NCBI GenBank assembly: GCA_039621445.1
Contig: CP154954.1
Coordinates: forward strand, 44,433,847-44,497,846
Origin: Euglena gracilis
Taxonomy: Eukaryota
Length of the DNA stretch: 64,000 bases
Direction: 5' to 3'
Part shown: positions 49,837 through 64,000 of the stretch, one piece after another
Numbering within the stretch: the stretch's first letter is position 1
Layout of the letters: every line of letters begins with the position of its first letter
Made by a program: the position numbers and the translations under genes
Notes under the pieces: generated by a model
Database searches by the model: none
Told to the model about the DNA's origin: nothing
The model's input: the letters and a program-made list of their open reading frames with translations, nothing else

Positions 49837-52800
49837 TCAGCAGGGGCGGACCGCATCTACACCGTCCTCCTCCTCATCCTCCTCGTCCTCCTCGGGGGCG
49901 GTGGTCACGCCACCGGGGGTGTGCCACGTCATGACGGTGTCCGGCCCGGAGGAGGACACCTCGGGGCCGTCGGGGTCCACCAGGCGGAGCAGCTCGTACA
50001 CGCTCATCCCCATCGCCAGCGGCAGGCAACCCACCACAGTTGGGAGTGCATGGCATGCACCTCCAGACACATGGGATTTTGGTGGTGTTGTCGGGATTTG
50101 TCAGGATTTGTCGGCTTGAGCTTGAGCTTGAGCTGCAGATCGTGGGGAGAGCAAATACACAATGGCCACTGGTGTGAGGGAGAGGTGGACTAAAAAATGC
50201 ATTTTCATTGCACCTTGTCAAAGAACCAGGGAAAAAATATAAAGAATCAAAACGTGCAAAGATAAAATAGCAACCGGTCTGGGAAAGAAACATTCCACGT
50301 TTTCATAAAAAAAACGTACACATAATTATTTTCCGGGTGATGGTTTTTGTTTCAACCTCTCCCATCGGGGCAAGCTTTGGAAAATCATCAAGACGGGTCA
50401 GCCACCACTGCACACGCCCAGTGGTGGTTTCAGGAGGTTGCTGGGTCGCTTGTCATCGCTTTCATCAAGTCCCAAAGCGACAAAAAATGCTCCAGTGCGG
50501 ATCAGATCTTGTAACTTTTGCTGCCCTGAAAAATAGTAAATGAGGTGTAAAAACTTTCAAAACCGCGTTATACCTGCCACGTACACCTTTGGCAACCATG
50601 TTCCCAATAAATTCTTTGCATCCACGAGAGAAAAAGAAGGTTTCTCACCATCGACGACCATATATTTGTTGTGCATTTTGTCATTTTGCTTTTTTTTCAC
50701 TTTTTTTGTGTCAAAAGGTCCAAAGCCCATTGAAGCGTGAATCCAGTCAAACAAAGGAAGAACCAACCCCAAAAAGGCCGATGGTCTCTGGAAAGATGGA
50801 CATTTTTGTTTCTAAAGGGCTGCAGTTCGGTAAAGATGTTGGCAAAGCTTTTGCAGCCTGCAACATTCCAATGTCAAGAGACATTTGGTGTTGTACTGGC
50901 AACCAAAGCTGCACGCTCCACCCTTTTCTTCACCATTTGAGCATGACTGCTCTCGACCCATCTCTTTTCATCGCCCACACCCCTTGAATATCCAACACAA
51001 TGACTTGATTGTATTCATTGAAGTAACCAGAGACTTTGCACACAACTTGCAATAAACCTTGCCTGGGGGGGAGGAAATTGAGACACTGTTGGACAGAGGT
51101 GCACACCTGAAATACTGTGTCCATGTGGATCGCTCTCAGCAATATCTGTCCAGCCTTCAGAATGGCGATATGCCACCCACTCAGCAACACTTCGACGTGA
51201 TGCATGAGTGCTCATGAGAAGACAAAGAGTCTTGGAAGAAAGCCAGACAGAGAGAGAGAGAGAGAGAGAGGAAATTGCACGGTACCAATCAAGTAAAACC
51301 ATCCCACTCACTTGGGAACAGGCACCTATGGTCACTTCCCATTTTGGTGCTCTGGTCGGCCCTGGTCGGCCCTGGTCGGCAAATAGTCGGCCATAGGTGG
51401 GGGTATCCTTCACAGAAAAAATGTGAAGGGATGCAATGATTTTCTGAATTGTCTCGCCAAGATCAAAAGGAAGTGCCCCATAAGGCCTCCATTGGCTCCC
51501 CAAAAGCAACCAAAATGACCTAAAATGGCTTGAAATAACCAAAAATTACCCAAAAGCGCCAACAAAATCCACAAAAGATTGTGAAAAGTGACCCAAAATT
51601 ACCAAAAGGGCGCAAAATGGCCTAAATGCCATAAAAAAACGCTCAGATTGACCCAAATTAGCCCAATAATTGCCAAATCAGTGACAAATAGCCCCCAAGT
51701 TAGCAAAAACTGGTCCATAATGGTCAAAATGGGTGTAAAACTGGAGATTAGTGAGAAAATTATCCAAAAGTTCTTCAAAATATACAAAAAAAAATGCCAG
51801 CATCACCCAGCATCGCCCAGCAACACCCTGCATCGCCCAGCATCGCCCAGCATCGGAACCCCACCTCTGGTCTCCAAAAATCCAGCATCACCCTGCATCG
51901 CCCAGCATCATCAGAGGTGCTTGTTCCAGAGGGAAAGCTGCCGAATTCCTTCATCCATTACCCTTCGGTCGGCCAACCACATGCAAATCGGCCCTGGTCG
52001 GCCCTGGTCGGCCCTGGTCGGCCATGGTCGGCCCTGGTCGGCCCTGGTCGGAACCCCCACCTACGGGGGTCCTGAAAATCATAATCGGCCCTGGTCGGCC
52101 CTGGTCGGCCCTGGTCGGCCCTGGTCGGCCGTAGGTGCCTGCTTGGGAACACTGGCCATTCCTTTTACCCTTTAATGGCTTTTTTGCAAAAAAAAATTCC
52201 GGTGTTGTCGGGATTTGTCGGGATTTGTCGGGATTTGTCGGGATTTGTCGGGATTTGTCGGAATCCCCACCTCCAGAAGGCCAAAAATGTGTTGTCGGGA
52301 TTTGTCGGGATTTGTCGGGATTTGTCGGGATTTGTCGCTGGAGGTGCTTGGTGCATGCCAAGGCGCTGGAAGGCTTTTTGGCCAACTTTTCCAGTGGGAC
52401 CGGGGTTCGAATGCCCACCCCTCAACAGGTGGGAAATTCTTTTGGCCAACAGCGCATATGTCAAAAAAAAAGCAAAAAAAAAATGGGGGAAAAAGCAGAC
52501 CGAAAATTTTTTCTGAAAAAAAGACTGATATGGGTACTTCCAGATATGCTTTTGGGCATTTGACCTGAATGGCTGCGCACCCCTATGCAATGGATTCAAA
52601 TCAGTGCAAATCAGCGGTCTAATTGATAAGCAGTTCAAAATTCGCCAGTTTTTTTGCAAGAAATATCAACCACTAATTTTTCCACAAACTTACCACTGAA
52701 TCATACCAAATAGCACTGCTGGATGAATGGGGAGGGCAGAGGCGGTCGCCTGAACTTGCCCTTCAGGTAAACGCCGTCCAGCCTCCGGGTAAAATCCAGG

Positions 52801-55800
52801 CTGCTGTCTGGACCTGAGCATCTGAACTGGACCCCTAACCCCCAAACCCCCCAAAAGCAAAGATAACAAGATCCCATTTTGTGGCTCAAGGAAGAACATT
52901 GAAACTGTGCAACTGTTCGCAGTGGCAGGGGGGGGGGGTGTGGGGCTCCGTCTCCTCAAACCCCCCAGAAGCTCTATAATAATAATGATGATAATAATAA
53001 CAAGAACAAGTTGTCATCTCAAAAGTGTGCAAGTTGCAAAAAAAAATTTTAATCTGATGTGAGTTTCCTGCCTACCCCACCCACCCTTGCCCTCCTTCAC
53101 CCCCTCCCTGGCCACTCCTCACTTCCTTCGGCCATATGTGTGGAACCCTTCGCAATGTTGTTTGCCTGGTCGGGATTTCCGGTGGTTGGAAAGCCCCCCC
53201 CCGGCAGGGCTGTACGGGACGGCCTGGTGGGGAGGGTGGTCGACCCCCACCTGCGAGGTGGGGGGGGGGCGACCCCCCGTTTCAATGGACAAGGAGAAAG
53301 TTCTTTTCGGTGCCTTTAGCGCAAAAGCAAAAAAAATGACCTAAAAATCGGCGCCCCCAGAAATACTGGAAGGAGTGGGGAGGGGTTCGAACCCCCACCC
53401 ATCAGGATAGGGGGGAGGGGAACTCAGGCTGGCAAAATTTGGCCATAGGTGAGGTGTATGGCCATTTCAGGCTGTTTTTGGCCCCTTTGGTAATTTCACC
53501 GCTGTGGCCGATTCTTTTTGAACCACTTTTGGTGTTTTTTTTTGAAAAATGAAAACGAAGTCAAATTAATTACTTCCATAACTTTAGAACCAACATCACA
53601 TCCAGAAAATTAATCGCATCTGACCAAGGGTGGCCCGAAGTTTATGTCAGCAGACCCGGGGGGGGGGGTCCATACCCGGCTGGGAGCTGTTGGCTGGGAA
53701 AGAAAAAGTGCTGGGTAGACCCCCGGGGGTGGGGGGTCTGGGGGAGGGGCAGGGCAGAACGGGAAGAGCTGGTGGGGGGTGACCCCCCACCCGGGAGGGG
53801 GGTGGGTCGACCCCCCCCCACCCACCACAGCATTTTCACCGATTTCGGGAAAACGGGGATTTTGGCCAGAAAAAATTTGATTTTTTTTTAAAAAAAGGAC
53901 CCAAAACACATCATTTTTTGATGGAAAACCACAAAATCTCAAAAAATTCAGGGTTGAGAATTGGTAGTTTTTAGGGGGGGGGTGAAAAAAACGAAGGTCA
54001 AAAAAATAAGACCAAATTTTGGCACAATCAAATTTTACTAACATTTTTTCTCTTTGAATTTTTTTTGGACTTTCAATGGCATTTTTTGCTTCAAACACCT
54101 CTCAAAACCAAAATTTTGAGAAAATGTTGAATTTCTAGAATGTGTGAAAAAAATGGGGTTTTGGGTGGTTTTTGGGGGGACCCCGTACATGGGTCCCAAA
54201 ATGGGTCAAAAAAAAACACCCGGCGCCGAAGGCACCGAAAAAATTTTTCGGGTCCAAAAATTGGTGCTCCCGGAAATACAGGAAGAGGTGGTGGGGGGGG
54301 GTCGACCCCCCCCCCACCCACACCCTGGCTGTTCGGCCGACTAGGGGGGCAGGGCTGTACAGGAAGAACTGGTGGGGCACTGAGCGAGGAAAATGTTGAA
54401 ACCGGTGGGAAACACAAGCTTGCCTGGTGGGGGGGGGGTCGGACCCCACCAGGGACCCGTCGGGTTTTGAGGATTCCCATGCAGCCCTGTCGGAGGGGAT
54501 CGTTGGGACGTTGTTGGACAACCCAAAACAAGCCGCTGGACAAATGAGTGATCCTTAACGATTATCTTGGATTTCAAAGAGAATATTAACATAGAATACA
54601 AAAAAAAATATAATATTATTGGTTTCTTCCAGAAATGTCAGAAAGCGGGCTTCAACTTCATTATTCAATACATTACCCACCCCTGAGCAACCACTTTCAA
54701 TTCCATGAATAATGTGCTGGATGTTGCTGCTGCTGGTTGTTGGGAGGGGGGGGGACTTTGAGCAGACCTCAACAGGAGCCTCGACACCACCCGCCGCTCC
54801 ACCGCGGCGTGCAGCTGCGGCCCGATGAGGATACGCGTCTTGCGCTCCTTGTTGAGCCCCTCCAGCCGGCTTGGCCGCAGGCCCGCCCCTGGTCCTTCTC
54901 CAGACAGCTGCGACTTTCCACAAGTGCCCGACAGCCACTTTGTGGTGGCTGGCACTGAACTCCTCCGAATTAAAGCAAACTGATGCTTCAACCTGGGTCT
55001 CGCTAGTAACTGCTTAGGCGACCCATCTCGCACTTAAGCTTTGTTTTCTTTGACAAGGTATGACCCCAAAAACCCAAAAATGTAGGCAGGATGTGATGTG
55101 GTGCCCCAGGACATCAACCATTTGTGCAACTGTAAAAAGTCCAATGTGTGCCAGCTGAAATTGATGTGTTTGTAAAATTGTACAAGTGGTTGGTTTGTGG
55201 AAATACGAAAACAGACTTTTTGGTCGGTTTGCGCATCTGCTCACACGGACCTCTGGTACAACTTAACACACGTACCATTCAGAGGGTGTGGCACCACTGC
55301 AGTTTTGAAATCCTTAAATGTGAGGCATTCTGTACAACTTAAGTGCAACTAAAGAACCAGCCTGCGGGCCCGACTTCGGGCATCGGCAATTGAAGCTCTG
55401 AAAAACCATCTCTTAGCCCCTGAAACATCAAAATAAACAACATTTTCAGGTTTTACCCTGAAGAACTGAGTTTAGAGGTGCACCCCCAGTATTTCAGTCC
55501 GAAAATGAGGCACAGTGCATTGGCTGAAAATGGATGTGTCTGCTGACTTGAAAATCCCTGTGTTCAGGGGACCATATAATGTAATACACTGACACGCTTC
55601 ATCTGACCTTCTCAGAAATACCTTACAACACAACCACTTTGAGCACAACCTCCATCCACAATCCACTCTCCTCCTGTTTCGATCTTTCTCTTGCCTCAGA
55701 AGTCCCTGTTGCCAAAACATCAAAATGAAAAAGAATTTTGGTTGGTGCCAACAGTTGTGAAGAGCGACCATTTTAATGGTTGATGTGCAGATTTGAGCAA

Positions 55801-58800
55801 ACCAACTACCCAAACATACCAGCAGCATTCAACAGAGGGGTCCAGTGCCACAAGAATACAAGGGAGGTAATATCACGATGTTGTCACATTCATTTTCCAG
55901 CTCCAAACACACTGCCATTGGAGGCTCTTGGTTGGTTTTAAAGTGGTCGGTGTGCGCAAATGTGCACAAATGCGCACATCGTCCATGTGCGCATTTGCGC
56001 ACACCGACATCATTTACTCTGTTGTGTGGGTGCCACAGAGCCTTATAAATCAGTGGGGCATTGATGGGCAACTTGCCACCTAATTCAACAGGAAACTGGT
56101 GGCAGTCCTCCTGTGTTATGTATCCCCCTCATCAATCAATCAATCAATCAATCCCCAATAGCAGAGTTTTCTTTCTGTCCACTGTTTATGTGGCATGTGC
56201 TTCCACTCCTTTCATAACCAACTTCCAAAACCTGCACAACGTGCCGCATAACTTCAGAAAGCAAGCAAAGGGGTGGACCTGCCACCCCGCTTCCAGAGCA
56301 CCACCTGCCGCTGGCACTTGTTCACACAGGGAATGGGGGGTGGCGGTACTGGGGTTTTGGTGCTTTTGTCGGTGTTTTTTTTTTACTTTGGGGGGATAGG
56401 TCCGGGTTTTTTGTGTCATTCCGAACTCAAAAAAAAAAACTGCAAAAAACATCTAACTCCTGGGAGAGCCGGTGCCATAAACAATAATCCGCTCATATTC
56501 AGTCCAATCCTGTTGCCTTTCGCTCTCACCCCTTGTAACGCCGGTGCTCAAAGTGGTTTTTGGGTCGGTTTGCGCAAATGCACAAATCAACCAAAAAAAT
56601 ACAAAAATCAGCCCATGAAATTTTCGGTGGATTATCAATACTCCACGGAACTATCAGAGTCATGACAAATTGAGCCCAGGTATTCTGGATTCGTGGCAGT
56701 CCATCCGCCCCAGGCCATTTTGGCAACTTTTTCCCCGACAACACTGGACACCGAAATTGATTTCCCATTTTCTGTACCCATGTTCCAGCCAATAAATGCC
56801 TGTCATGCAAAATAAAAGTGGTTACTTTTGGACATGGTTCACCATCAGTGCTGCCAGCATTGGCATCAGTTTGTAATGAAAAATGGGCAGCATACTCCAA
56901 GGCACTAATGTTTTCTAATTCACCACCCCGTAAAGCATAATTGTATGCCGCGGGGAAGCCCACGATTATTGACTTTCCTTCATGCAAAAGGGAAACCAGT
57001 TCTGTTGTGCCCACCTCTTCTACAAAAGGGTCATCCAAATTGTCCATCCCACGAGAATCCATTAGGATGGCAGTTGCATCAAGCATTCTCCTGTCCTCCC
57101 CATCTCCATCTTTATTGGTGTTCTCAGCACATTCATTCTGAGATTCCTCATGTTCGCTATCATCCTCATCATCGTCATCATCATTGTCCATTTCATCGGC
57201 AATGTCATTGTCATTGTTCTCATCACGAATTTGGGCTGCTCCATCAATATTGCATAGTTCATCCCCCTCTCCGCCGATGTTTGTAGCCCCACTCACACAG
57301 ATTGTGTCTTCATTCGTTTTTTTGTCACCGAGTTGTTCCACATTTGGAAAAAGTGCTGGCAAATTGGAGATATAATGCCAAGGATTTACCATCACAAATT
57401 TATGGGAAGCGTGCCACGACGGAAAACCTAGTACTGCCGTTGCTGCCATTTGGGCTCCCACTTCAATTTTTCTATCCATGGCATTAACAACGCGTTTCAA
57501 AAGTGCGGCATAATCTTCCTTGTCTTGTATTTTGTGTCCCAGGCGTTCCTCAACTTCATCCATGACATGACGCAGAACAGATAAAACGCCACCCAGTTTT
57601 ACTGGGTTTTTTGTGCAATATCCCACAACGTAATTTGCCAGAGCAAGCACCCCAACCTCTCCACCGAGAATTTGGGCATTTGAGTTACATGCAAGGACAA
57701 AAGAAACAATTTTGCTGCAATCGACGACGCGACCATCACATTTGTGTGGTCGCTTTGTTTCCCAAACCACTAAATGGCTGTCAATTGTCGGATCCTGTGC
57801 AATGTTTGCAACGTGTTCCAACGGAATTTCTTGTAAATCATGTCCACCAGTATCCACTTTACGTGCCACAAAAAGGTGGGGTCTTGTTTCATCTGAAAGC
57901 AACCCACACGCACGTGGCATGCCAAAACGACAACCAAACTTGCCAGCAGGTGGCTTTCCACAACTAGGTATGAAACAACGGTGTATTTGCAGGGCCCCCA
58001 TGACTTCCTCTGCAAATTTTGTAATGGACATATACGCGTCCTGTACATTTTCGGGCAATGGGGGCAAATATTCCTTTTCTTCCAACATTCTGGGCGCTGG
58101 ACAATGCTCCCTTTGCCTTTGCTCCCATTTCTCATGCACTACGTTGGATAAACTGGTGCTTATTTGAGAATCCAGAGCCCTTGCTGCAACCTTGATTGTT
58201 TCTTCATCGTGAATGATTGAATCCAATACATGCGGAGGAATTCCTCCCCAGAATACCCCATGCCCGTGCAACGAACCTCGAGATTGAGCCTCGGTGCAAA
58301 TAACTGCAGCTACTGGTGTCCCATGCATGCCAACTTTTCTGGAACACGTGGATTCATGTTTTCGAGTAGTTTGTGCATCGGGCACTCTCAATAAAACTTT
58401 CATGAAGGCGAGCACTTGTCTCTCAAATATCCTTGCAGCAGCCACTGGGTTGTTGGAAATTGCAGCAAATTTTTCTGACGTTTCCGGCATTTTTAGTGAT
58501 AATTTGGCCTTGCCCAAACACAATGCTAATGTCAACATGTTATCCACGTCATTTGGGGCAAATGTGAAAAAAACGGATGGCATCCCAAACCATGCAAGCA
58601 TTGCTTGCATTTTTCCGAGAGTGGCGTACCTTTCGGAAGAACCGAATGGTACAATGCTATGACAAGTGCGGATGATTGGCAAAAACTCCATCAGCAATTT
58701 TGTAGCCAACGAACCCGTAGGGTTCTTCATTGCCTCTGCCAAGCGTTCTTTAAAATCAACACTATTCACGGCGTTTTCAAAACGAGTCAAAAACGAAGGG

Positions 58801-61800
58801 GTTGCTTTGAGGCGACGACTTATACTCCGGAGAGCCATGTGCCTTAATTTTTGATTAAAAAGGAGCAAGACAAAATCTCTGTTTTCCGAAAACCTGTGAT
58901 CATATTGATACAACAGATGACGCACAGTCTCGGTATTTAACCCACTGTTTTTTTCAATGCCTTGATATGTCATGAACAACGTGGGAAATGATCCTCGTGC
59001 AATTAAATCTTCAAAACACACAACGGGACCAACATACGAGGGAGGAAATGAATGCTTCCATCAATTGTTCCGAGTTGGTGAATGTATCAGATTGCGTTCC
59101 AAAGGTGGCTGCGAATATTTGGAAGGCAAAGGGGGATGGTTCTTGTTTTTTTTATTGCGTGCTGGGTTCAAATGAGCCCAGGGATGCAATACAATGCAAT
59201 ACATCTCCATTGGCGGGATTGTGTAAACTTTTGCAATGTGGTTCATGCAATTTTCGATGTGCATCCTTCGTCCATGTGCGCCCACATCCCATACGACACG
59301 CATATAATCCAGAATGCTGTAATATTGTTGCACAAATTTTCTCGTGCTCGTTCCGTGCTTTCCTACACTGAAATTTTAAAACATTGTCTGCCCCAGGTTT
59401 CAATACTTTGTCTGCTCCCTTCCCATCGTACGATATCCCCACCTGCAAATACAAGTTTTGTAAATGCTTGAAAGTCATTGGCATGGACTTGTGTTGGCAC
59501 ATATAATTCACCAGCTGCGCACGGGGAAGTAAGGAGCGCAATCTTCGCACAATCGTGCAAAGATCATCATTACTCCTGAGTTGAATGAGGCGTATGTCCT
59601 CTGTACGTCTGACCCGACTGATACCAACATAAAACGCATTGTATGACAAAGTGGGAGTTATCGGATGGTCAACACATAAAATAATTTTGTCCAATGTTCG
59701 ACATTGGACACCATGAAAAGTTGTTGCAAACAACAAATTAAAAGGATGTGCCATCACTGTCACAATGCCCCTTTTTTTGGACGATAGATGCATGTACCGC
59801 GCAACGTTAACCTCCCGTGGCATAGAAAACAAGGGAATGATTCTTCCACCCTCCTCTGTGACGCCAAGAGCAGCATCGCCTGTCACCTCACCGGAAACAA
59901 CTACATTTACAGCATAAGGGGGGTATTCCAACGTTATAATTTCCCCCGGCAATGCCCCCGAAATCCTTTCCAACGTCTCCTGGAGGTCATGTTCATTCAG
60001 CACGAGGGAATGGATAAAAGCCCTTGTTCCATTTGACAACCCTCGTTCCGGCCGTATGTTGTATGTCAAAGTGATAGGACAACCTTCCACAACATATGCC
60101 CATAAATCCTTCACTTTGGCGTACATGACATTTTGTAAATCTTCACCAATGCAGGCGGCAAAATCATTTTTCAATGGTAACTTCCATTTTATTATGGGTT
60201 TTCTCATGCTTTCAGCACATAACCGAACCATGACTTCATTCACCATGTGTACACACTTTCGGTCTGTGGAGACAATAAGGGCATTTGACCACGACCTGTC
60301 CCTTTGAAAATCAGAGGCTGTTATCATTTTCAACGATGCCAAAAATGTGTCTCGCGCCTGCAGTCCTTGTAGTGAAAAATTCCGGTAAGCTGCCACTGCA
60401 GCCATGTGCTCAGGATCCTTTGCTCTGTGTTGGGTGTTGAGGCTGAGGACTTTGAAGGATTGAAACAACGTATAGCCTTCTAATGCATCCAACATTCCTG
60501 CAAATTGTGTCTTAGGTTTGATGTATAGATCTCCCCCACCAACTGGGGGAATTTGAACGAAATCACCCATTAGAACCACACCCATTCCCCCGAATGGTTC
60601 AGTGTTGTTGTCGCACACTTTGCGCATGCGCTTGTCAATGTCCCGCAACATTTTGCAGGTCAACATGGACATTTCATCAATGAGAAGCACTTTGCAACCT
60701 GTGAACTGGGATCTCAAACGGTATAATTTTTCCCTTCCTCCATCCTGTGCAGTGTCATTCATACCTTCCTCTCCATACACACTCAACCCCACTGCATGGT
60801 GGCACGTTGACCCTCGATGCAAATTGCATGCAGCAACCCCAGAAGGGGCCATGAAGCGCAAAACATTTGAACCAAATGCCATGGACAGCCGGTTATGCAA
60901 TTCCCTTGCCATTGTGCTTTTGCCTGTTCCAGGTCCAGCATGTACTACGACGAGTGGAGCGGTTGTTTTGCATGATGGATCTGCAATGCAAACAAGTTGC
61001 ACGTAATCCGTAATCATTTTTACGAAACTTTCTTGTTCCTCCGTCAAAAGCACACTGCTTTGACCACATAGGTGTACTGTGGCTGGGTTTGTTCCCACCC
61101 GGGAACCGAGTTCTGCGCGCGGAAAATCATCGCTTTTCAATGCCAGGTACGTCTTATTCAAAGTATCTGATAAGGGAACCTTAGGATCAAATGGGTTTGC
61201 ATTGTTAATGTGCAATGCGAAGCACTTGCTAGTTGTTGGAGATGGCATTGGCTGTCCGTGTTCTTCCCCATGTCTGGCGAAGGTTTTCAATAGCACATTA
61301 ACCAACCGTGGCTCGTCATGGTCGCTTTCGTTGAAACCTTCGTTGCTAAATTTCTGCATGGCCTCATGAAGGTTGTGCAGGGTGTCGTGAAAATGCTGAA
61401 TTTTTGTACAATGCCTCATTTCTTGCATTGCACTTCTTTCTGCCAAAGCATCAAAATTTATGTCCAGTGGGTGCGCAGTACCCCACTTCTTTTGGTTTCT
61501 GTTTCTGATTATGGCAGAAAGAATCGAAGATTTTTGTGAAACGGTGGTTAGGCTTTTCAACCTCTGAACATAAGCAACCCGTGCACGATCTACATATGGT
61601 GCATCTTTTTCTCCTGCACACTGTTCCCACTGCGAGATGCGCGCCTAAGAACTGGGTCTCGCCAGTAACTGGGACTCGCCAGTACCGCTGCTTCAGATTC
61701 GAGGGGCAGAATGGTGGGGCCGGGCCTGGCCGCCACGTTGACCACGTCGCCCACCACGGTGTAGTTCATGCGGTGCCGCGAGCCGAAGATGCCCGCGTGG

Positions 61801-63955
61801 ACCTGCCCCGCCTCCAGGCCCATCCGCCCGGAGAGGCGGGCGCATGGGGCTCTGCTGGGAATGAGGCGGTGCGGGCGGGGGAAGGAATGGATTGCAGAGG
61901 GAAGTTGACTTGGGGGAATGGTGTCGTGGCTGTGAGAAGGTATCCGCCCGGTGCATCTCGCACAAACGAGGCTTTGCTGGTTCCCCACTGGTGATGAAAA
62001 GGGAGGAGGGTTGCACGGGAAAAGCCACCCTCTCCTGCTCTTTCCTGAGGACGGTTCACCATCAGCGCGTCTTTTAACGACCCCCTCCCCCAGGTTGTCC
62101 AGTTCAGAGGCTGGAAAACTCGGGCTGCCGGATGAAGGCTGCTGGTTGACCTTGGGGTGCCAGGCTTGGGCTGGAACTGGGCCCAACCCAGGGTCGAACC
62201 GGGAACCCAAATTTCAACACTGCAAAACTCCAAAAAAAAATCTCCAATTGTGCAAAAAGACGATTTTTTTCACCCCAAATTCGTCCTGGCCAGCCCTTTC
62301 CGACCCATTTTTGCCCATTTTCGGCCCATTTTTTGAAGCACCTGAAAGCCAAAATTTCATCACCGTCCAGGGTGGCTTGGAACAAATGATAAAACCCGTT
62401 GATGGGGGGCGTCTAAGCTGGAAAAAGGCTGGCTGGCTCCTCCCTGGGGGTGGGATCGAATTTTCTTCAACTCACCAATCTTTCTGCATCCCTGGCTGCC
62501 GTTCTGTGCCCCCCCCCCCCAAGTGGAAATCACACAAGATGACCATATCCTATTGCCCAGATTGATTCCACTTCCCGCCTGGCCGGAGAACGTCCGTCCA
62601 AAATCAGTCATCACGGCCAGAAGGCAGGTCTTCAGCCCATCCCCCATCTCCGGGCCCCGCGATAAAAAAGCCACCCAGCCTGCGGGGCCGCAGGGCGCCA
62701 TGCCCGCAGGGAGCCGCCCTGCCGGTGGACCATCCAGTCCGCGCACTCCAGCGCCGCCCGGCACGCATGGTACTCGTGGTCCTTGACGGGGGACGGGGCG
62801 TTCCAGAAGGCCATGACGCAGTCACCGGCAGGCGATGGGCCGGGGCTTTGTTGTCCAGAAATGCGGGTCTTGAAAAGCAGGGGATGCCAGTGTTCACGGT
62901 TTTCAAAAACGACAGAGAAAAGGATGTGGTCGGGAAATAAAAAAAAGCACACAACCAACACCCTTCACAGCCCTCCACCCATTACCCCACAACGATGTCA
63001 TCTCGTTTCTGTGCATTACATCCTTTGATCCTGAATCTCTTTGGTAAAGGAAACGCTTGCTGAAATCAACGGCAAATAACTGCGGACAAAGATCAATCCC
63101 TCGTCCAGGAAACCACGAGTATCAAAGAGAAGCAGGGAGTGAGATGCTTCTCCAGCGGGTCTAACACAGCACTCCAAACTCATGCATATGGTCTGGGGCC
63201 AAGGCCCACCCTGGCCGCCAATGTACTTGTCGATCACCCCGCGGCGCCGCACGATGATGGAGGACAGCTCCTCGAAGAACGCGCCGATGCTCTCCACCAG
63301 CTGGGCCCAGGGATCGGCAACAAACAAAAGCCAGAAAAACAAACGCGAACCGCCACCGAACTACCCTGCATTCAGCCTCAGAACAAAGTGCTCTAATTGT
63401 GCCAAGGGCTGGAGCACTGGTGGGCGTGGATTTACCTCGCCAGGTCGGGAAAAACCGCTGCAGACCATTGTCCTTCAGCAATGCAAAGCCCCAGCAGGGG
63501 GGGGGGGAAGATATTTGCAAAAGGAGGGCATTGCAGGAAGTAATCCATCCGGAGACATTTTTGGTGCACAGGGCGAAGCGCCAAGCTGAAAAACCTGCCT
63601 CCCAAAATGCTTCCTGGAGTCAGTCCCTTCCTGGAGTCAGTCTGGCCCTCCTGGTAGGTGGAGGTTTGGTCCGGACCCCCCTCCAATCTAGGAGGGGGGG
63701 GGGGTGTCAACCCCCATCCTGGACACCCTCCATTGTCCCCAGGATTTGATCCACAAAGCTGTTGGGGGAGGTTGAAAACTCATTGCAAAGAACTGATATG
63801 CCCAATCCCACGGGTAATGGGGTTGGGGAACTCTTCTTCTATTGGTGAAAGTTCGTTCTGCCCTCAACGGCATGCGAAGACCTGACTGGGCCGCATCGGT
63901 GGACTCGGTTAGGTTGGTAAAGTTCTCAATGTCAAGGAAGAACACTGTGGCAGCC
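49837..63955 (-). CDS. Adenylyl cyclase B (tandem paralog, 5' part beyond the window): exons ~63888-63955, 63217-63302, 62725-62823, 61732-61838, ~54778-54872, 52756-~52787, 49837-50017
   Basis: ATVFFLDIENFTNLTESTDAAQ|LVESIGAFFEELSSIIVRRRGVIDKYIG|DCVMAFWNAPSPVKDHEYHACRAALECADWMVH|RLSGRMGLEAG..NYTVVGDVVNVA|SRLEGLNKERKTRILIG..|RRLDGVYLKGK|AMGMSVYELL..; highly similar to cyclase A. Confidence 0.9.
50560..51220 (+). pseudogene. Possible degenerate hAT-type transposase remnant
   Basis: QFGKDVGKAFAACNIPM resembles the hAT/CGGBP-like 'F..D+..A+..ANIP' segment. Downstream frameshifted LIVFIEVTRD and PAFRMAI..CMSAH weakly resemble the first-Asp and CxxH motifs. Judged by eye only. Confidence 0.3.
51319..52141. 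mobile_element. hAT-like non-autonomous element with (CCCTGGTCGG)n subterminal repeats
   Basis: TIR caggcacctatgg / ccgtaggtgcctg; perfect 8-bp TSD cttgggaa. Confidence 0.9.
52202..52337. repeat. (GGGATTTGTC)n decamer repeat, two blocks
   Basis: Directly visible; also at ~50084-50113. Confidence 0.9.
55946..56008. other. GC-rich hairpin (17-bp outer stem plus an overlapping 12-bp inner stem)
   Basis: gtcggtgtgcgcaaatg ... catttgcgcacaccgac; inner aaatgcgcacat-cgtcc-atgtgcgcattt. Confidence 0.8.
56526..59021 (-). CDS. Helitron-type HUH Rep endonuclease (Helitron2/Helentron-like); frame open to a stop at 59061-59063, true start uncertain
   Basis: 831-aa ORF: FPTLF, motif I FFTFAPND, motif II EAQSRGSLHGHGVFW (HUH), HRC..C..CRFGMP, motif III YVVGYCTK (Y2), an acidic tract, and the C-terminal linker WAQFVMTLIVPW. 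Confidence 0.92.
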   Translation of the reverse strand: MCFEDLIARGSFPTLFMTYQGIEKNSGLNTETVRHLLYQYDHRFSENRDFVLLLFNQKLRHMALRSISRRLKATPSFLTRFENAVNSVDFKERLAEAMKNPTGSLATKLLMEFLPIIRTCHSIVPFGSSERYATLGKMQAMLAWFGMPSVFFTFAPNDVDNMLTLALCLGKAKLSLKMPETSEKFAAISNNPVAAARIFERQVLAFMKVLLRVPDAQTTRKHESTCSRKVGMHGTPVAAVICTEAQSRGSLHGHGVFWGGIPPHVLDSIIHDEETIKVAARALDSQISTSLSNVVHEKWEQRQREHCPAPRMLEEKEYLPPLPENVQDAYMSITKFAEEVMGALQIHRCFIPSCGKPPAGKFGCRFGMPRACGLLSDETRPHLFVARKVDTGGHDLQEIPLEHVANIAQDPTIDSHLVVWETKRPHKCDGRVVDCSKIVSFVLACNSNAQILGGEVGVLALANYVVGYCTKNPVKLGGVLSVLRHVMDEVEERLGHKIQDKEDYAALLKRVVNAMDRKIEVGAQMAATAVLGFPSWHASHKFVMVNPWHYISNLPALFPNVEQLGDKKTNEDTICVSGATNIGGEGDELCNIDGAAQIRDENNDNDIADEMDNDDDDDEDDSEHEESQNECAENTNKDGDGEDRRMLDATAILMDSRGMDNLDDPFVEEVGTTELVSLLHEGKSIIVGFPAAYNYALRGGELENISALEYAAHFSLQTDANAGSTDGEPCPKVTTFILHDRHLLAGTWVQKMGNQFRCPVLSGKKLPKWPGADGLPRIQNTWAQFVMTLIVPWSIDNPPKISWADFCIFLVDLCICANRPKNHFEHRRYKG
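59152..61560 (-). CDS. Pif1-family SF1B helicase of Helitron type with a C-terminal C2H2-like finger; frame open up to the TIR (61644)
   Basis: AGPGTGKS, MAPSGVAA, GSTCH, LLIDEMSM, PFGG..MGDFVQIPPV, QHR, GLSNGT, FATTFHGVQCRTLD, YVGISRVR; C-terminal CRMGCGRTW..HRKLHEPHC. Confidence 0.95.
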   Translation of the reverse strand: MKSLTTVSQKSSILSAIIRNRNQKKWGTAHPLDINFDALAERSAMQEMRHCTKIQHFHDTLHNLHEAMQKFSNEGFNESDHDEPRLVNVLLKTFARHGEEHGQPMPSPTTSKCFALHINNANPFDPKVPLSDTLNKTYLALKSDDFPRAELGSRVGTNPATVHLCGQSSVLLTEEQESFVKMITDYVQLVCIADPSCKTTAPLVVVHAGPGTGKSTMARELHNRLSMAFGSNVLRFMAPSGVAACNLHRGSTCHHAVGLSVYGEEGMNDTAQDGGREKLYRLRSQFTGCKVLLIDEMSMLTCKMLRDIDKRMRKVCDNNTEPFGGMGVVLMGDFVQIPPVGGGDLYIKPKTQFAGMLDALEGYTLFQSFKVLSLNTQHRAKDPEHMAAVAAYRNFSLQGLQARDTFLASLKMITASDFQRDRSWSNALIVSTDRKCVHMVNEVMVRLCAESMRKPIIKWKLPLKNDFAACIGEDLQNVMYAKVKDLWAYVVEGCPITLTYNIRPERGLSNGTRAFIHSLVLNEHDLQETLERISGALPGEIITLEYPPYAVNVVVSGEVTGDAALGVTEEGGRIIPLFSMPREVNVARYMHLSSKKRGIVTVMAHPFNLLFATTFHGVQCRTLDKIILCVDHPITPTLSYNAFYVGISRVRRTEDIRLIQLRSNDDLCTIVRRLRSLLPRAQLVNYMCQHKSMPMTFKHLQNLYLQVGISYDGKGADKVLKPGADNVLKFQCRKARNEHEKICATILQHSGLYACRMGCGRTWTKDAHRKLHEPHCKSLHNPANGDVLHCIASLGSFEPSTQ

Positions 63956-64000
63956 GTTGGGGCAGAGGGGGACCAGCAAAATATCTTCAGGAGAATCTCT

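Follow-up and report, generated by a model that had tools for sequence, protein, structure and literature searches.

A circularly permuted copy of a Helitron-like RepHel gene within a high-copy repeat of Euglena gracilis

The window analysed here, a 64,000-nucleotide stretch of Euglena gracilis DNA, carries two long open reading frames that resemble the two halves of a Helitron RepHel protein, with the helicase ahead of the Rep endonuclease, and it raises the question of how this order arose and whether a complete RepHel can be made from it. The helicase frame (61644..59152, minus strand, 830 codons) contains a Pif1-like superfamily 1 helicase domain (PF05970, residues 225-411, E=1.2e-23, 84.3 bits against a cut-off of 25.9). 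The Rep frame downstream (59060..56526, minus strand, 844 codons) contains an HUH Rep endonuclease domain (PF14214, Helitron_like_N, residues 47-269, E=2.2e-20, 74.1 bits against a cut-off of 28.9), and no further Pfam domain was found in either frame at E<=0.01. The motif GSLHGHG is readable in the translation of the Rep frame, and Y477, Y481 and K484 of the catalytic-tyrosine region are invariant in an alignment of eight sequences. The two frames lie on the same strand but in different phases, with stops between them; the Helitron feature of Rep and helicase in one reading frame, Rep first, is therefore absent from this copy and was seen only in a form joined in sequencing reads and in the two-domain homologues. 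In the helicase frame the first methionine stands at codon 73, in agreement with an earlier sequence-only reading which saw no ATG in the first ~70 codons, and the frame is open into the right terminal repeat as far as 61644. The Rep frame has its first methionine at codon 30, no ATG upstream of motif I and a TGA directly 5', and remains open at its other end into a surrounding repeat, termed Y, as far as 56526. Two ways of rescuing these frames as they stand were considered by hand: a helicase-Rep fusion by frameshift or readthrough is ruled out by a TGA 31 codons further on, and a tiny intron supplying a start codon by incompatible frames. Annotation pipelines would report two separate truncated genes at this locus.

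Comparison with homologous proteins identifies the two frames as halves of one gene. In blastp alignments, residues 322-816 of the Rep frame match P0013 at 34-585 and residues 3-804 of the helicase frame match P0013 at 588-1467; likewise, residues 218-819 of the Rep frame match P0004 at 3-598 and residues 15-101 of the helicase frame match P0004 at 610-696. In homologous RepHel proteins, the stretch that ends Rep lies next to the one that opens the helicase frame, and a join of position 56600 to 61631 is collinear with P0013 and P0004 without a single indel; the same holds for P0083 by a manual count of residues rather than a tool alignment. The helicase frame is 38% identical to P0013 across 97% of the query and 51-59% identical to P0164 and P0165. 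Two-domain proteins made up 12 of the 18 long homologues scanned, with Rep before the helicase in 12/12. Given that both frames are open (>830 codons each), it could be argued that the helicase-then-Rep order is natural for this element family and that the two are separate genes. This is scarcely credible for several reasons: first, the order was seen in 0/12 two-domain homologues; second, three homologue lineages continue straight across the join; third, neither frame has a start codon before its conserved part; and fourth, the contiguous form is present as DNA, as described below. The two parts can be delimited as follows. The Rep part spans 56600..59060 (minus strand; PF14214, homologues 39-52% identical), and the linker, the Pif1 helicase (PF05970) and the C-terminal Cys/His motifs span 59155..61631 (minus strand). 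Similarity to Rep had earlier been traced to the peptide ISWADFCIFL, which holds as far as ISWADFC (56600); the last three residues, IFL, are codons of Y. According to the read joint and the homologue collinearity, homology resumes at 61631/61629.

Reads from four sequencing runs (X1, X15, X21 and X24) were consulted, for which the best-supported 15 of 69 joints were examined. A joint from 61631 to 56600, which goes back 5032 positions, is present in an X1 contig (depth 341.9, shorter side 35 nt) and again in a 326-nt X15 contig (depth 6.36, shorter side 116 nt, one mismatch). This joint is in frame (...SWADFC-K-WEQCAG...) and yields a reading frame of 1646 codons with no internal stop, occupying 4938 of 5032 nt (98%) and leaving only 94 nt outside (59061..59154, minus strand), between the helicase stop TAA at 59152-59154 and the TGA of the Rep frame at 59061-59063. 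In the window copy, the joined frame has no evident start codon. The segment 56600..61631 (minus strand) accordingly holds a RepHel element in circularly permuted form: its length is precisely one unit, 5032 bp, and its breakpoint falls in the Rep-Hel linker. The earlier proposal that the two frames are halves of one permuted RepHel gene is borne out both by the blastp collinearity and by the reads. The sequence skipped by the joint has no GT-AG ends, and the joint carries none of the 1.6-kb Y nor its abutted ends. In X1 the joint has a depth of 342, the contigs of the element body 309-432 and the single-copy flanks 33-54; the element is multi-copy, and the joined form is present in DNA at about the depth of the body, roughly 7-12 times that of single-copy flanks. 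X1 behaves as DNA: a spliced host joint from 61836 to 62705, seen in X21, X24 and X15, is absent from its listed joints, and the intronic flanks are covered at 33-54. The joint-bearing contig of X15, an RNA-type run, may represent DNA carry-over instead of RNA. Since the joined form occurs in DNA at element-body depth, uninterrupted RepHel is the common, usual genomic arrangement in Euglena gracilis and not a splice product. Synonymous changes account for 17 of the 34 listed copy-to-copy differences, where 22% would be expected (p=3e-4), and at most of these sites X1 shows only the letter that the window does not have. Of the element's sampled words, a fraction of at most 0.54 was present in any listed run, so that these runs do not reproduce the exact window copy. 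A blastn search of the window found no second copy of the unit or of Y, and a metagenome scan gave 0 matches to the 36 nt adjoining the breakpoint.

In the assembly, the unit is nested in sequence of a different kind, with junctions at 56599|56600 and 61631|61632. Y occupies 55013..56599 together with 61632-61649 on the far side of the unit, and is non-coding, palindrome-bearing (55946-56008) and of very high copy number: its summed word depth per bin in X1 is 25,772-110,866, compared with 55-115 for low-copy flank bins (54602-54902 and 62428-63000), so that in this DNA run it exceeds the flanks by a factor of hundreds to thousands. The motif GGTCGGTTTGCGCA occurs in Y at 55222, 55945, 55988 (minus strand) and 56563, four times against 0.00 expected. 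Y ends in a left terminal inverted repeat, CTTAGGCGACCCATCTCGCA (55013..55032, plus strand), and a right one, the reverse complement of which is CTTAGGCGCGCATCTCGC (61632..61649, minus strand). The left arm has an inner ACTTAAGC that is missing from the right, and comparison of 55013-55032 with the reverse complement of 61631-61649 gives 8+9 matches and one indel. With the insert removed, the aligned ends of Y score 35, against 10 +/- 4 and a maximum of 27 for shuffles. Y is a repeat separate from the 5032-bp unit, and the inverted repeats belong to Y. When Y was considered as a non-autonomous cut-and-paste DNA transposon, it was found to have terminal inverted repeats and no transposase gene detectable with Pfam, its six reading frames (83-137 codons, 55472-56665) containing no domain at E<=0.01. 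An Rfam scan of 53000-64000 returned only sub-threshold miRNA-like matches on the 55946-56008 palindrome, and the terminal repeat of Y had 0 matches in the metagenome scan. Y is flanked by a direct repeat of 20 nt (54993..55012 and 61652..61671, 95% match), the left copy being a single unit of a 17-nt repeat of the host and the right being followed by a further copy of that repeat at 61669-61688. The pentamer AACTG at 55008-55012 recurs at 61650-61654, on both sides of Y, and because the host repeat becomes regular again (17-17-17) once the insert and one AACTG are taken out, it is possibly a 5-bp target duplication, as judged from the sequence; the tandem nature of the host repeat makes a 20-nt flanking repeat equally possible. 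The whole structure lies in a host intron of ~6.86 kb (54874..61731, minus strand, ends +/-1 nt; ~216 nt minus the insert), delimited by loose ends of RNA reads: those at 54873 (four reads in X21, four in X24, one contig in X15) continue into CCACGTTGACCAC, which is the window from 61733, and X15 loose ends before 61732 match 54857-54872.

In light of these data, the main proposal of the sequence-only reading can be assessed: that the 6.6-kb element bounded by inverted repeats is functional and expresses RepHel only by GT-AG splicing across the joined ends of a circle or dimer, integration acting as an off switch. The splice sites do exist and are in phase (GT at 56591-56590 and AG at 61631-61630; exon end at 56592, an intron GTTGAT...TCGCAG, exon restart at 61629) and give an in-frame protein, and the terminal inverted repeats with their flanking direct repeat do delimit a 6.6-kb unit. 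Nevertheless, this scenario is very improbable. The join observed is 56600|61631, in DNA, at body depth and free of Y sequence, and neither a 56592-61629 nor a 55013-61649 joint is among the best-supported 15 of the 69 joints. Alignment of the fused peptide with homologues upholds the collinearity of the halves, but the proposed splice adds two residues relative to P0013, P0004 and P0083. Furthermore, Y by itself outnumbers the element body by a factor of hundreds to thousands, and neither of the two host introns evident from RNA at this locus has GT-AG ends. Given that the contiguous gene is seen directly in DNA reads, no circle-dependent splice is needed, and with contiguous RepHel as the common genomic form the idea of an integration-dependent off switch is disfavoured.

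What does stand from the sequence-only reading is that the gene order calls for a circular or head-to-tail template, and the data fit its own alternative, in which a circle is cut open in the linker and enters the right inverted repeat at its inner part. It is therefore suggested that the window probably holds a by-product permuted copy of a Helitron-like rolling-circle transposon, derived from a circular or head-to-tail form that became linear by a single break in the linker and was then integrated. Ordinary copies, like their relatives, encode a single reading frame in the order Rep, linker, Pif1 helicase and C-terminal zinc-finger-like motifs. A circular or tandem template, as we infer, would have been opened at one point of the linker, parting the bases that are today 56600 and 61631, presumably either by a double-strand break followed by end joining or by Rep nicking at an ectopic site that was met again after one round. 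Exactly one 5032-bp unit would then have entered a pre-existing copy of the abundant non-coding Y, bounded by its inverted repeats and resident in the host intron, at a point that in the assembly lies 18 bp inside the right end; this insertion may have taken place here or before Y moved. On the coding strand the helicase half now stands ahead of the Rep half, each reading a few codons into Y; such a copy cannot make RepHel, and intact protein would come from the ordinary contiguous copies.

Two other readings invoke a circular or tandem form. It is conceivable that the locus carries several units arranged head to tail, of which the assembly presents one; such a tandem array could be a rolling-circle concatemer or could later have been shrunk by unequal recombination. 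Many units would give an X1 joint depth (342) close to the body depth (309-432), as observed; Helitrons arrayed head to tail occur in the genomes of plants and bats, according to the available excerpts of PMC5876387; and an array with both ends in the same phase, once collapsed, would be indistinguishable from the window. This is unlikely, however, for two reasons: first, the window copy differs from the majority of reads at no fewer than 34 body sites (>=34) and is thus not the consensus of abundant copies; second, RNA reads reveal at least one copy with another boundary, at 59195. Were there an array, the contiguous Rep-to-Hel read joints would stem partly or wholly from the window locus. 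A little less likely again is that the 5032-bp unit is a complete replicon, existing mainly as free circles or concatemers, of which the chromosomal copies are integrations opened at different points. The near-complete occupation of the unit by the joined frame and the similarity of joint and body depth would be expected of such a circle, short-form RepHel homologues without DUF6570 exist (P0019, P0071 and P0027), and the second boundary, which belongs to another copy, falls at a tandem 10-mer. Against this, contigs cannot distinguish circular from chromosomal copies, Rep is preceded by a TGA and a start codon is missing, 94 nt is too little for regulatory or terminal sequences, and relatives at 39-52% identity lie in contigs of 0.28-2.5 Mb, indicating chromosomal copies. 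If it were true, the functional gene, perhaps with a start codon at the 10-mer, would exist only in circular form.

Returning to the permuted by-product copy, the ends at which the unit was opened need not be the natural ends of the element. Helitrons typically have 5'-TC...CTRR-3' ends with a 3' subterminal hairpin and insert at AT, leaving the target unduplicated. The ends of the unit read AG...GTA on its coding strand, although this is an opened copy and the ends of intact copies may differ; no canonical Helitron termini were found at the unit ends or at 59195, and six folded 90-nt stretches (from the unit ends, 59195 and Y) gave no significant hairpin (z-scores -1.1 to +1.4). The tandem 10-mer (ATGCAATACA twice, 59184..59203) may mark where the natural ends of the element are joined, since RNA reads derived from another copy depart from the window sequence at 59195 (a loose end in X24, four reads, agreement 0.96). 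Helentrons and Helitron2 elements are distinguished by an extra endonuclease domain (Helentron) and by asymmetric terminal inverted repeats; the unit has no extra Pfam domain at E<=0.01 and the inverted repeats at this locus are those of Y. In summary, a permuted single unit would be the natural footprint of circular or concatemeric forms re-entering chromosomes away from the element's own ends, and no description of a permuted RepHel copy was found in those parts of the literature reached by a full-text search.

Among known systems, bacterial insertion sequences provide a precedent for circle-junction-dependent expression, in which a promoter is assembled from the abutted ends. This is analogous to the idea of a gene expressed only from a circle, but unlike those circles the element here has a contiguous RepHel in DNA without any terminal-repeat junction. 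Similar proteins are the DUF6570-Rep-Pif1 proteins of eukaryotic assemblies (P0001, P0003, P0015, P0020 and others), which have the same Rep and helicase families, the Rep being 39-52% identical; the C-terminal Cys/His motifs of P0013 are common to the window unit. These proteins have ~670 or more N-terminal residues with DUF6570 (~670 additional residues in the close homologues P0001 and P0003), whereas the window unit lacks them, as do the short forms P0019 and P0071, and a tblastn search with the first 675-775 residues of P0001 and P0003 detected no remnant within the window. The available excerpts of PMC5876387 document, for Helitrons, circles with joined ends, the use of circles as donors, junctions that are often aberrant, and head-to-tail arrays, and in these excerpts re-entry of the circular form is demonstrated experimentally only with a reconstructed bat element. 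Helraiser, as described in the accessible parts of PMC5876387 and PMC4778049, is likewise a rolling-circle element with RepHel, and its transposition circles, like the window copy, require a closed or head-to-tail form that brings distant parts together. The Helraiser circles, however, are joined and re-opened at the right and left ends of the element itself, whereas the window copy was opened inside the coding linker, permuting the gene: its unit boundary lies inside the reading frame and not at the element ends, Rep-to-helicase continuity runs across that boundary with an exact unit length, and a single unit is nested in Y in the assembly. The reintegration of extrachromosomal circular DNA, as outlined in the available portion of PMC9527254, offers a general parallel, given that a circle can be linearised anywhere and re-inserted to leave a permuted copy; that process is general and described mostly from cancer genomes, whereas in the present case the circle would be a transposon form in a protist-like genome.

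The insert at 55013-61649 holds two consecutive long frames on the minus strand, HelORF (61644..59152, 830 codons) followed by RepORF (59060..56526, 844 codons), and has a G+C content of ~44-46% against 50-57% in its flanks. Pfam places a PIF1-like helicase (PF05970, residues 225-411, E=1.2e-23) in the first frame and a Helitron_like_N Rep domain (PF14214, residues 47-269, E=2.2e-20) in the second, so the helicase lies ahead of Rep and the RepHel order is reversed. Neither frame has a usable start codon: the first Met of HelORF is codon 73, that of RepORF is codon 30, within the first conserved motif, and RepORF is shut directly upstream by a TGA at 59061-59063. The homologues of RepORF are 39-52% identical and drawn from large eukaryotic contigs. 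In the homologous protein P0004 the Rep C-terminus passes directly into sequence like the N-terminus of HelORF, P0013 (1503 aa) carries the C-terminal half of Rep, the linker, the helicase and C-terminal Cys/His motifs in a single chain, and P0083 is likewise continuous across the linker. By blastp, RepORF 322-816 corresponds to P0013 34-585 and HelORF 3-804 to P0013 588-1467; RepORF 218-819 corresponds to P0004 3-598 and HelORF 15-101 to P0004 610-696. Given that these coordinates put both halves side by side within single homologues, the central observation of the sequence-only reading, that the tail of Rep and the beginning of the helicase frame are adjoining parts of one protein, was correct.

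Searching 1.84 billion representatives without a profile yielded 1870 matches at E<=1e-3, and 18 long matches, picked by length and late Rep positions, were scanned against Pfam. Rep and PIF1 domains occur together in 12 of the 18, with Rep first in every one of the 12; the other six gave no PIF1 match. The window holds no trace of a DUF6570-type N-terminal region, and homologues P0019, P0071 and P0027, which are without DUF6570, indicate that short forms minus the long N-terminal region exist.

Four sequencing runs (X1, X15, X21 and X24) were mapped onto 54000-63000. X1 lacks the spliced host joint 61836 -> 62705, covers the intronic flanks at a depth of 33-54 and behaves as a DNA run; X21, X24 and X15 carry this splice and therefore contain RNA. 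In X1, one contig of depth 341.9, with a shorter side of 35 nt, joins 61631 to 56600 by going back 5032, such that 61631 comes directly after 56600 on the coding strand. The reading frame is kept across this join, because 56600 supplies codon position 1 from the Rep frame and 61631-61630 supply positions 2-3 from the helicase frame. The product, ...DNPPKISWADFC-K-WEQCAGEKDAPYV... at the seam, is an ORF of 1646 codons with no internal stop. The join needs no indel against P0013 or P0004, Rep 817-820 plus the K exactly filling P0013 586-590, and none against P0083, where residues were counted by hand from the sequence. Since the depth of the joint falls within that of the X1 body contigs (309-432), the contiguous Rep-Hel arrangement is the one that prevails in the genome, at a depth ~7-12 times that of the flanks. 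The same joint occurs in X15, an RNA-type run, in one 326-nt contig (depth 6.36, sides of 116 and 210 nt, 1 mismatch), for which, at a depth of 6, carry-over of DNA is possible. Raw RNA reads are sparse on the body, with none in X21 between 57010 and 61524 and 0.1-1.5 per bin in X24. In stranded X24, at very low counts over 57913-61223, reads of the helicase part are sense, like the host exons, and Rep-part reads on 57913-59417 are antisense.

It had been proposed that a GT-AG splice across a circle junction rejoins the two frames, leaving RepHel switched off when integrated. The predicted join, 56592|61629, likewise keeps the frame but is two residues longer than the homologue-collinear join, and it was not seen among the joints listed from reads of the four runs. 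Given that the join seen is 56600|61631, in DNA and at body depth, the splice and its off switch are not upheld.

The sequence at 55013-56599 and 61632-61649 is a separate repeat, Y, and not part of the unit. Its left inverted-repeat arm starts at 55013 (CTTAGGCGACCCATCTCGCA) and its right arm ends at 61649 (reverse complement CTTAGGCGCGCATCTCGC(A)); the inner ACTTAAGC that the left arm carries is missing from the right arm where the unit is inserted. With the unit removed, the Y ends align with a score of 35, against 10 +/- 4 and a maximum of 27 for shuffles. Y is rich in palindromes and non-coding: six ORFs tested within it gave no Pfam match. Summed X1 depth over Y is 25,772-110,866 per bin, and X1 contigs show many alternative joints inside it (for example 55111 -> 55943, 55199 -> 56178 and 56005 -> 56537) together with a head-to-tail joint, 56591 -> 55050, with 11 nt between; Y resembles a patchwork of smaller elements that are extremely abundant and have a motif, GGTCGGTTTGCGCA, in common. 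Another very abundant repeat is found at 54000-54450, where X1 depth peaks (summed 483,741 over 54000-54300) and where G-run/C-run inverted repeats lie at 54294-54318 and 54426-54450.

The insert splits a tandem repeat of the host intron with a 17-nt unit (CTGGGTCTCGCCAGTAA, with variants; 54993-55012 and 61652-61688), of which the 20-nt direct repeat flanking it (54993-55012 and 61652-61671, 95% identity) is a portion. AACTG is present on both sides, and deletion of the insert plus AACTG regenerates three regular units. RNA loose ends connect 54873 to 61733, which places the entire bounded structure inside a ~6.86-kb intron of a minus-strand gene, an intron removed by splicing. A flanking exon-like frame (61590-62213, minus) gives a weak, sub-threshold match to an adenylate/guanylate cyclase catalytic domain (E=0.0019, 18.3 bits, cut-off 21.9), and RNA loose ends with variant sequence suggest paralogous gene copies. 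The RNA-defined host introns at 61837-62704 and ~54874-61731 have no GT-AG or GC-AG ends on either strand, allowing 1-2 nt of ambiguity, and non-canonical introns seem to be a feature of this organism. A local tandem repeat at 51900-52420 codes for PGRPWSALVG-like units on the plus strand and complementary PTNPDKSRQI-like units on the minus strand.

At 59184-59203, 10 codons past the last Cys/His motif of the helicase, the 10-mer ATGCAATACA occurs twice in tandem. Four RNA reads of X24 agree with the window as far as 59195 and then run into unrelated sequence, indicating that another element copy ends there; this unrelated sequence includes GACTCGCCAGT, which the 17-nt repeat around the insert contains as well. 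The boundary at 59195 is possibly that of the element's natural joined ends, beside a similar host motif. Folding of the unit ends gave no significant hairpin. The best runs match 0.54 of the sampled words of the window copy, the exact copy being confirmed in no run. Among the 40 read differences listed, of 81 in all, 34 lie in the unit, half of them (17) synonymous and 17 not, against an expected synonymous share of 22% (binomial p=3e-4), which would rise to 34% were every change a transition (p=0.04). This excess indicates that copies diverged partly under purifying selection, like those of an active family.

In its simplest reading, 56600-61631 is a permuted RepHel unit sitting within Y, 18 bp from the right tip of Y. 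It is exactly one unit of 5032 bp, with no base missing or repeated where it was opened and just 94 nt outside the joined ORF, and such an exact permutation requires a template, circular or head-to-tail, that was opened a single time. The data are best fitted by the alternative already raised from the sequence, in which a circle was opened within the linker and went into the right terminal repeat; this reading is favoured with moderate confidence. Such a template may have been broken and then repaired by end joining, or Rep may have nicked an ectopic site and met the same site again after one round. Helitron circles and their role as donors are documented in one published account (PMC5876387), as are aberrant junctions, which are frequent, and head-to-tail arrays in genomes.
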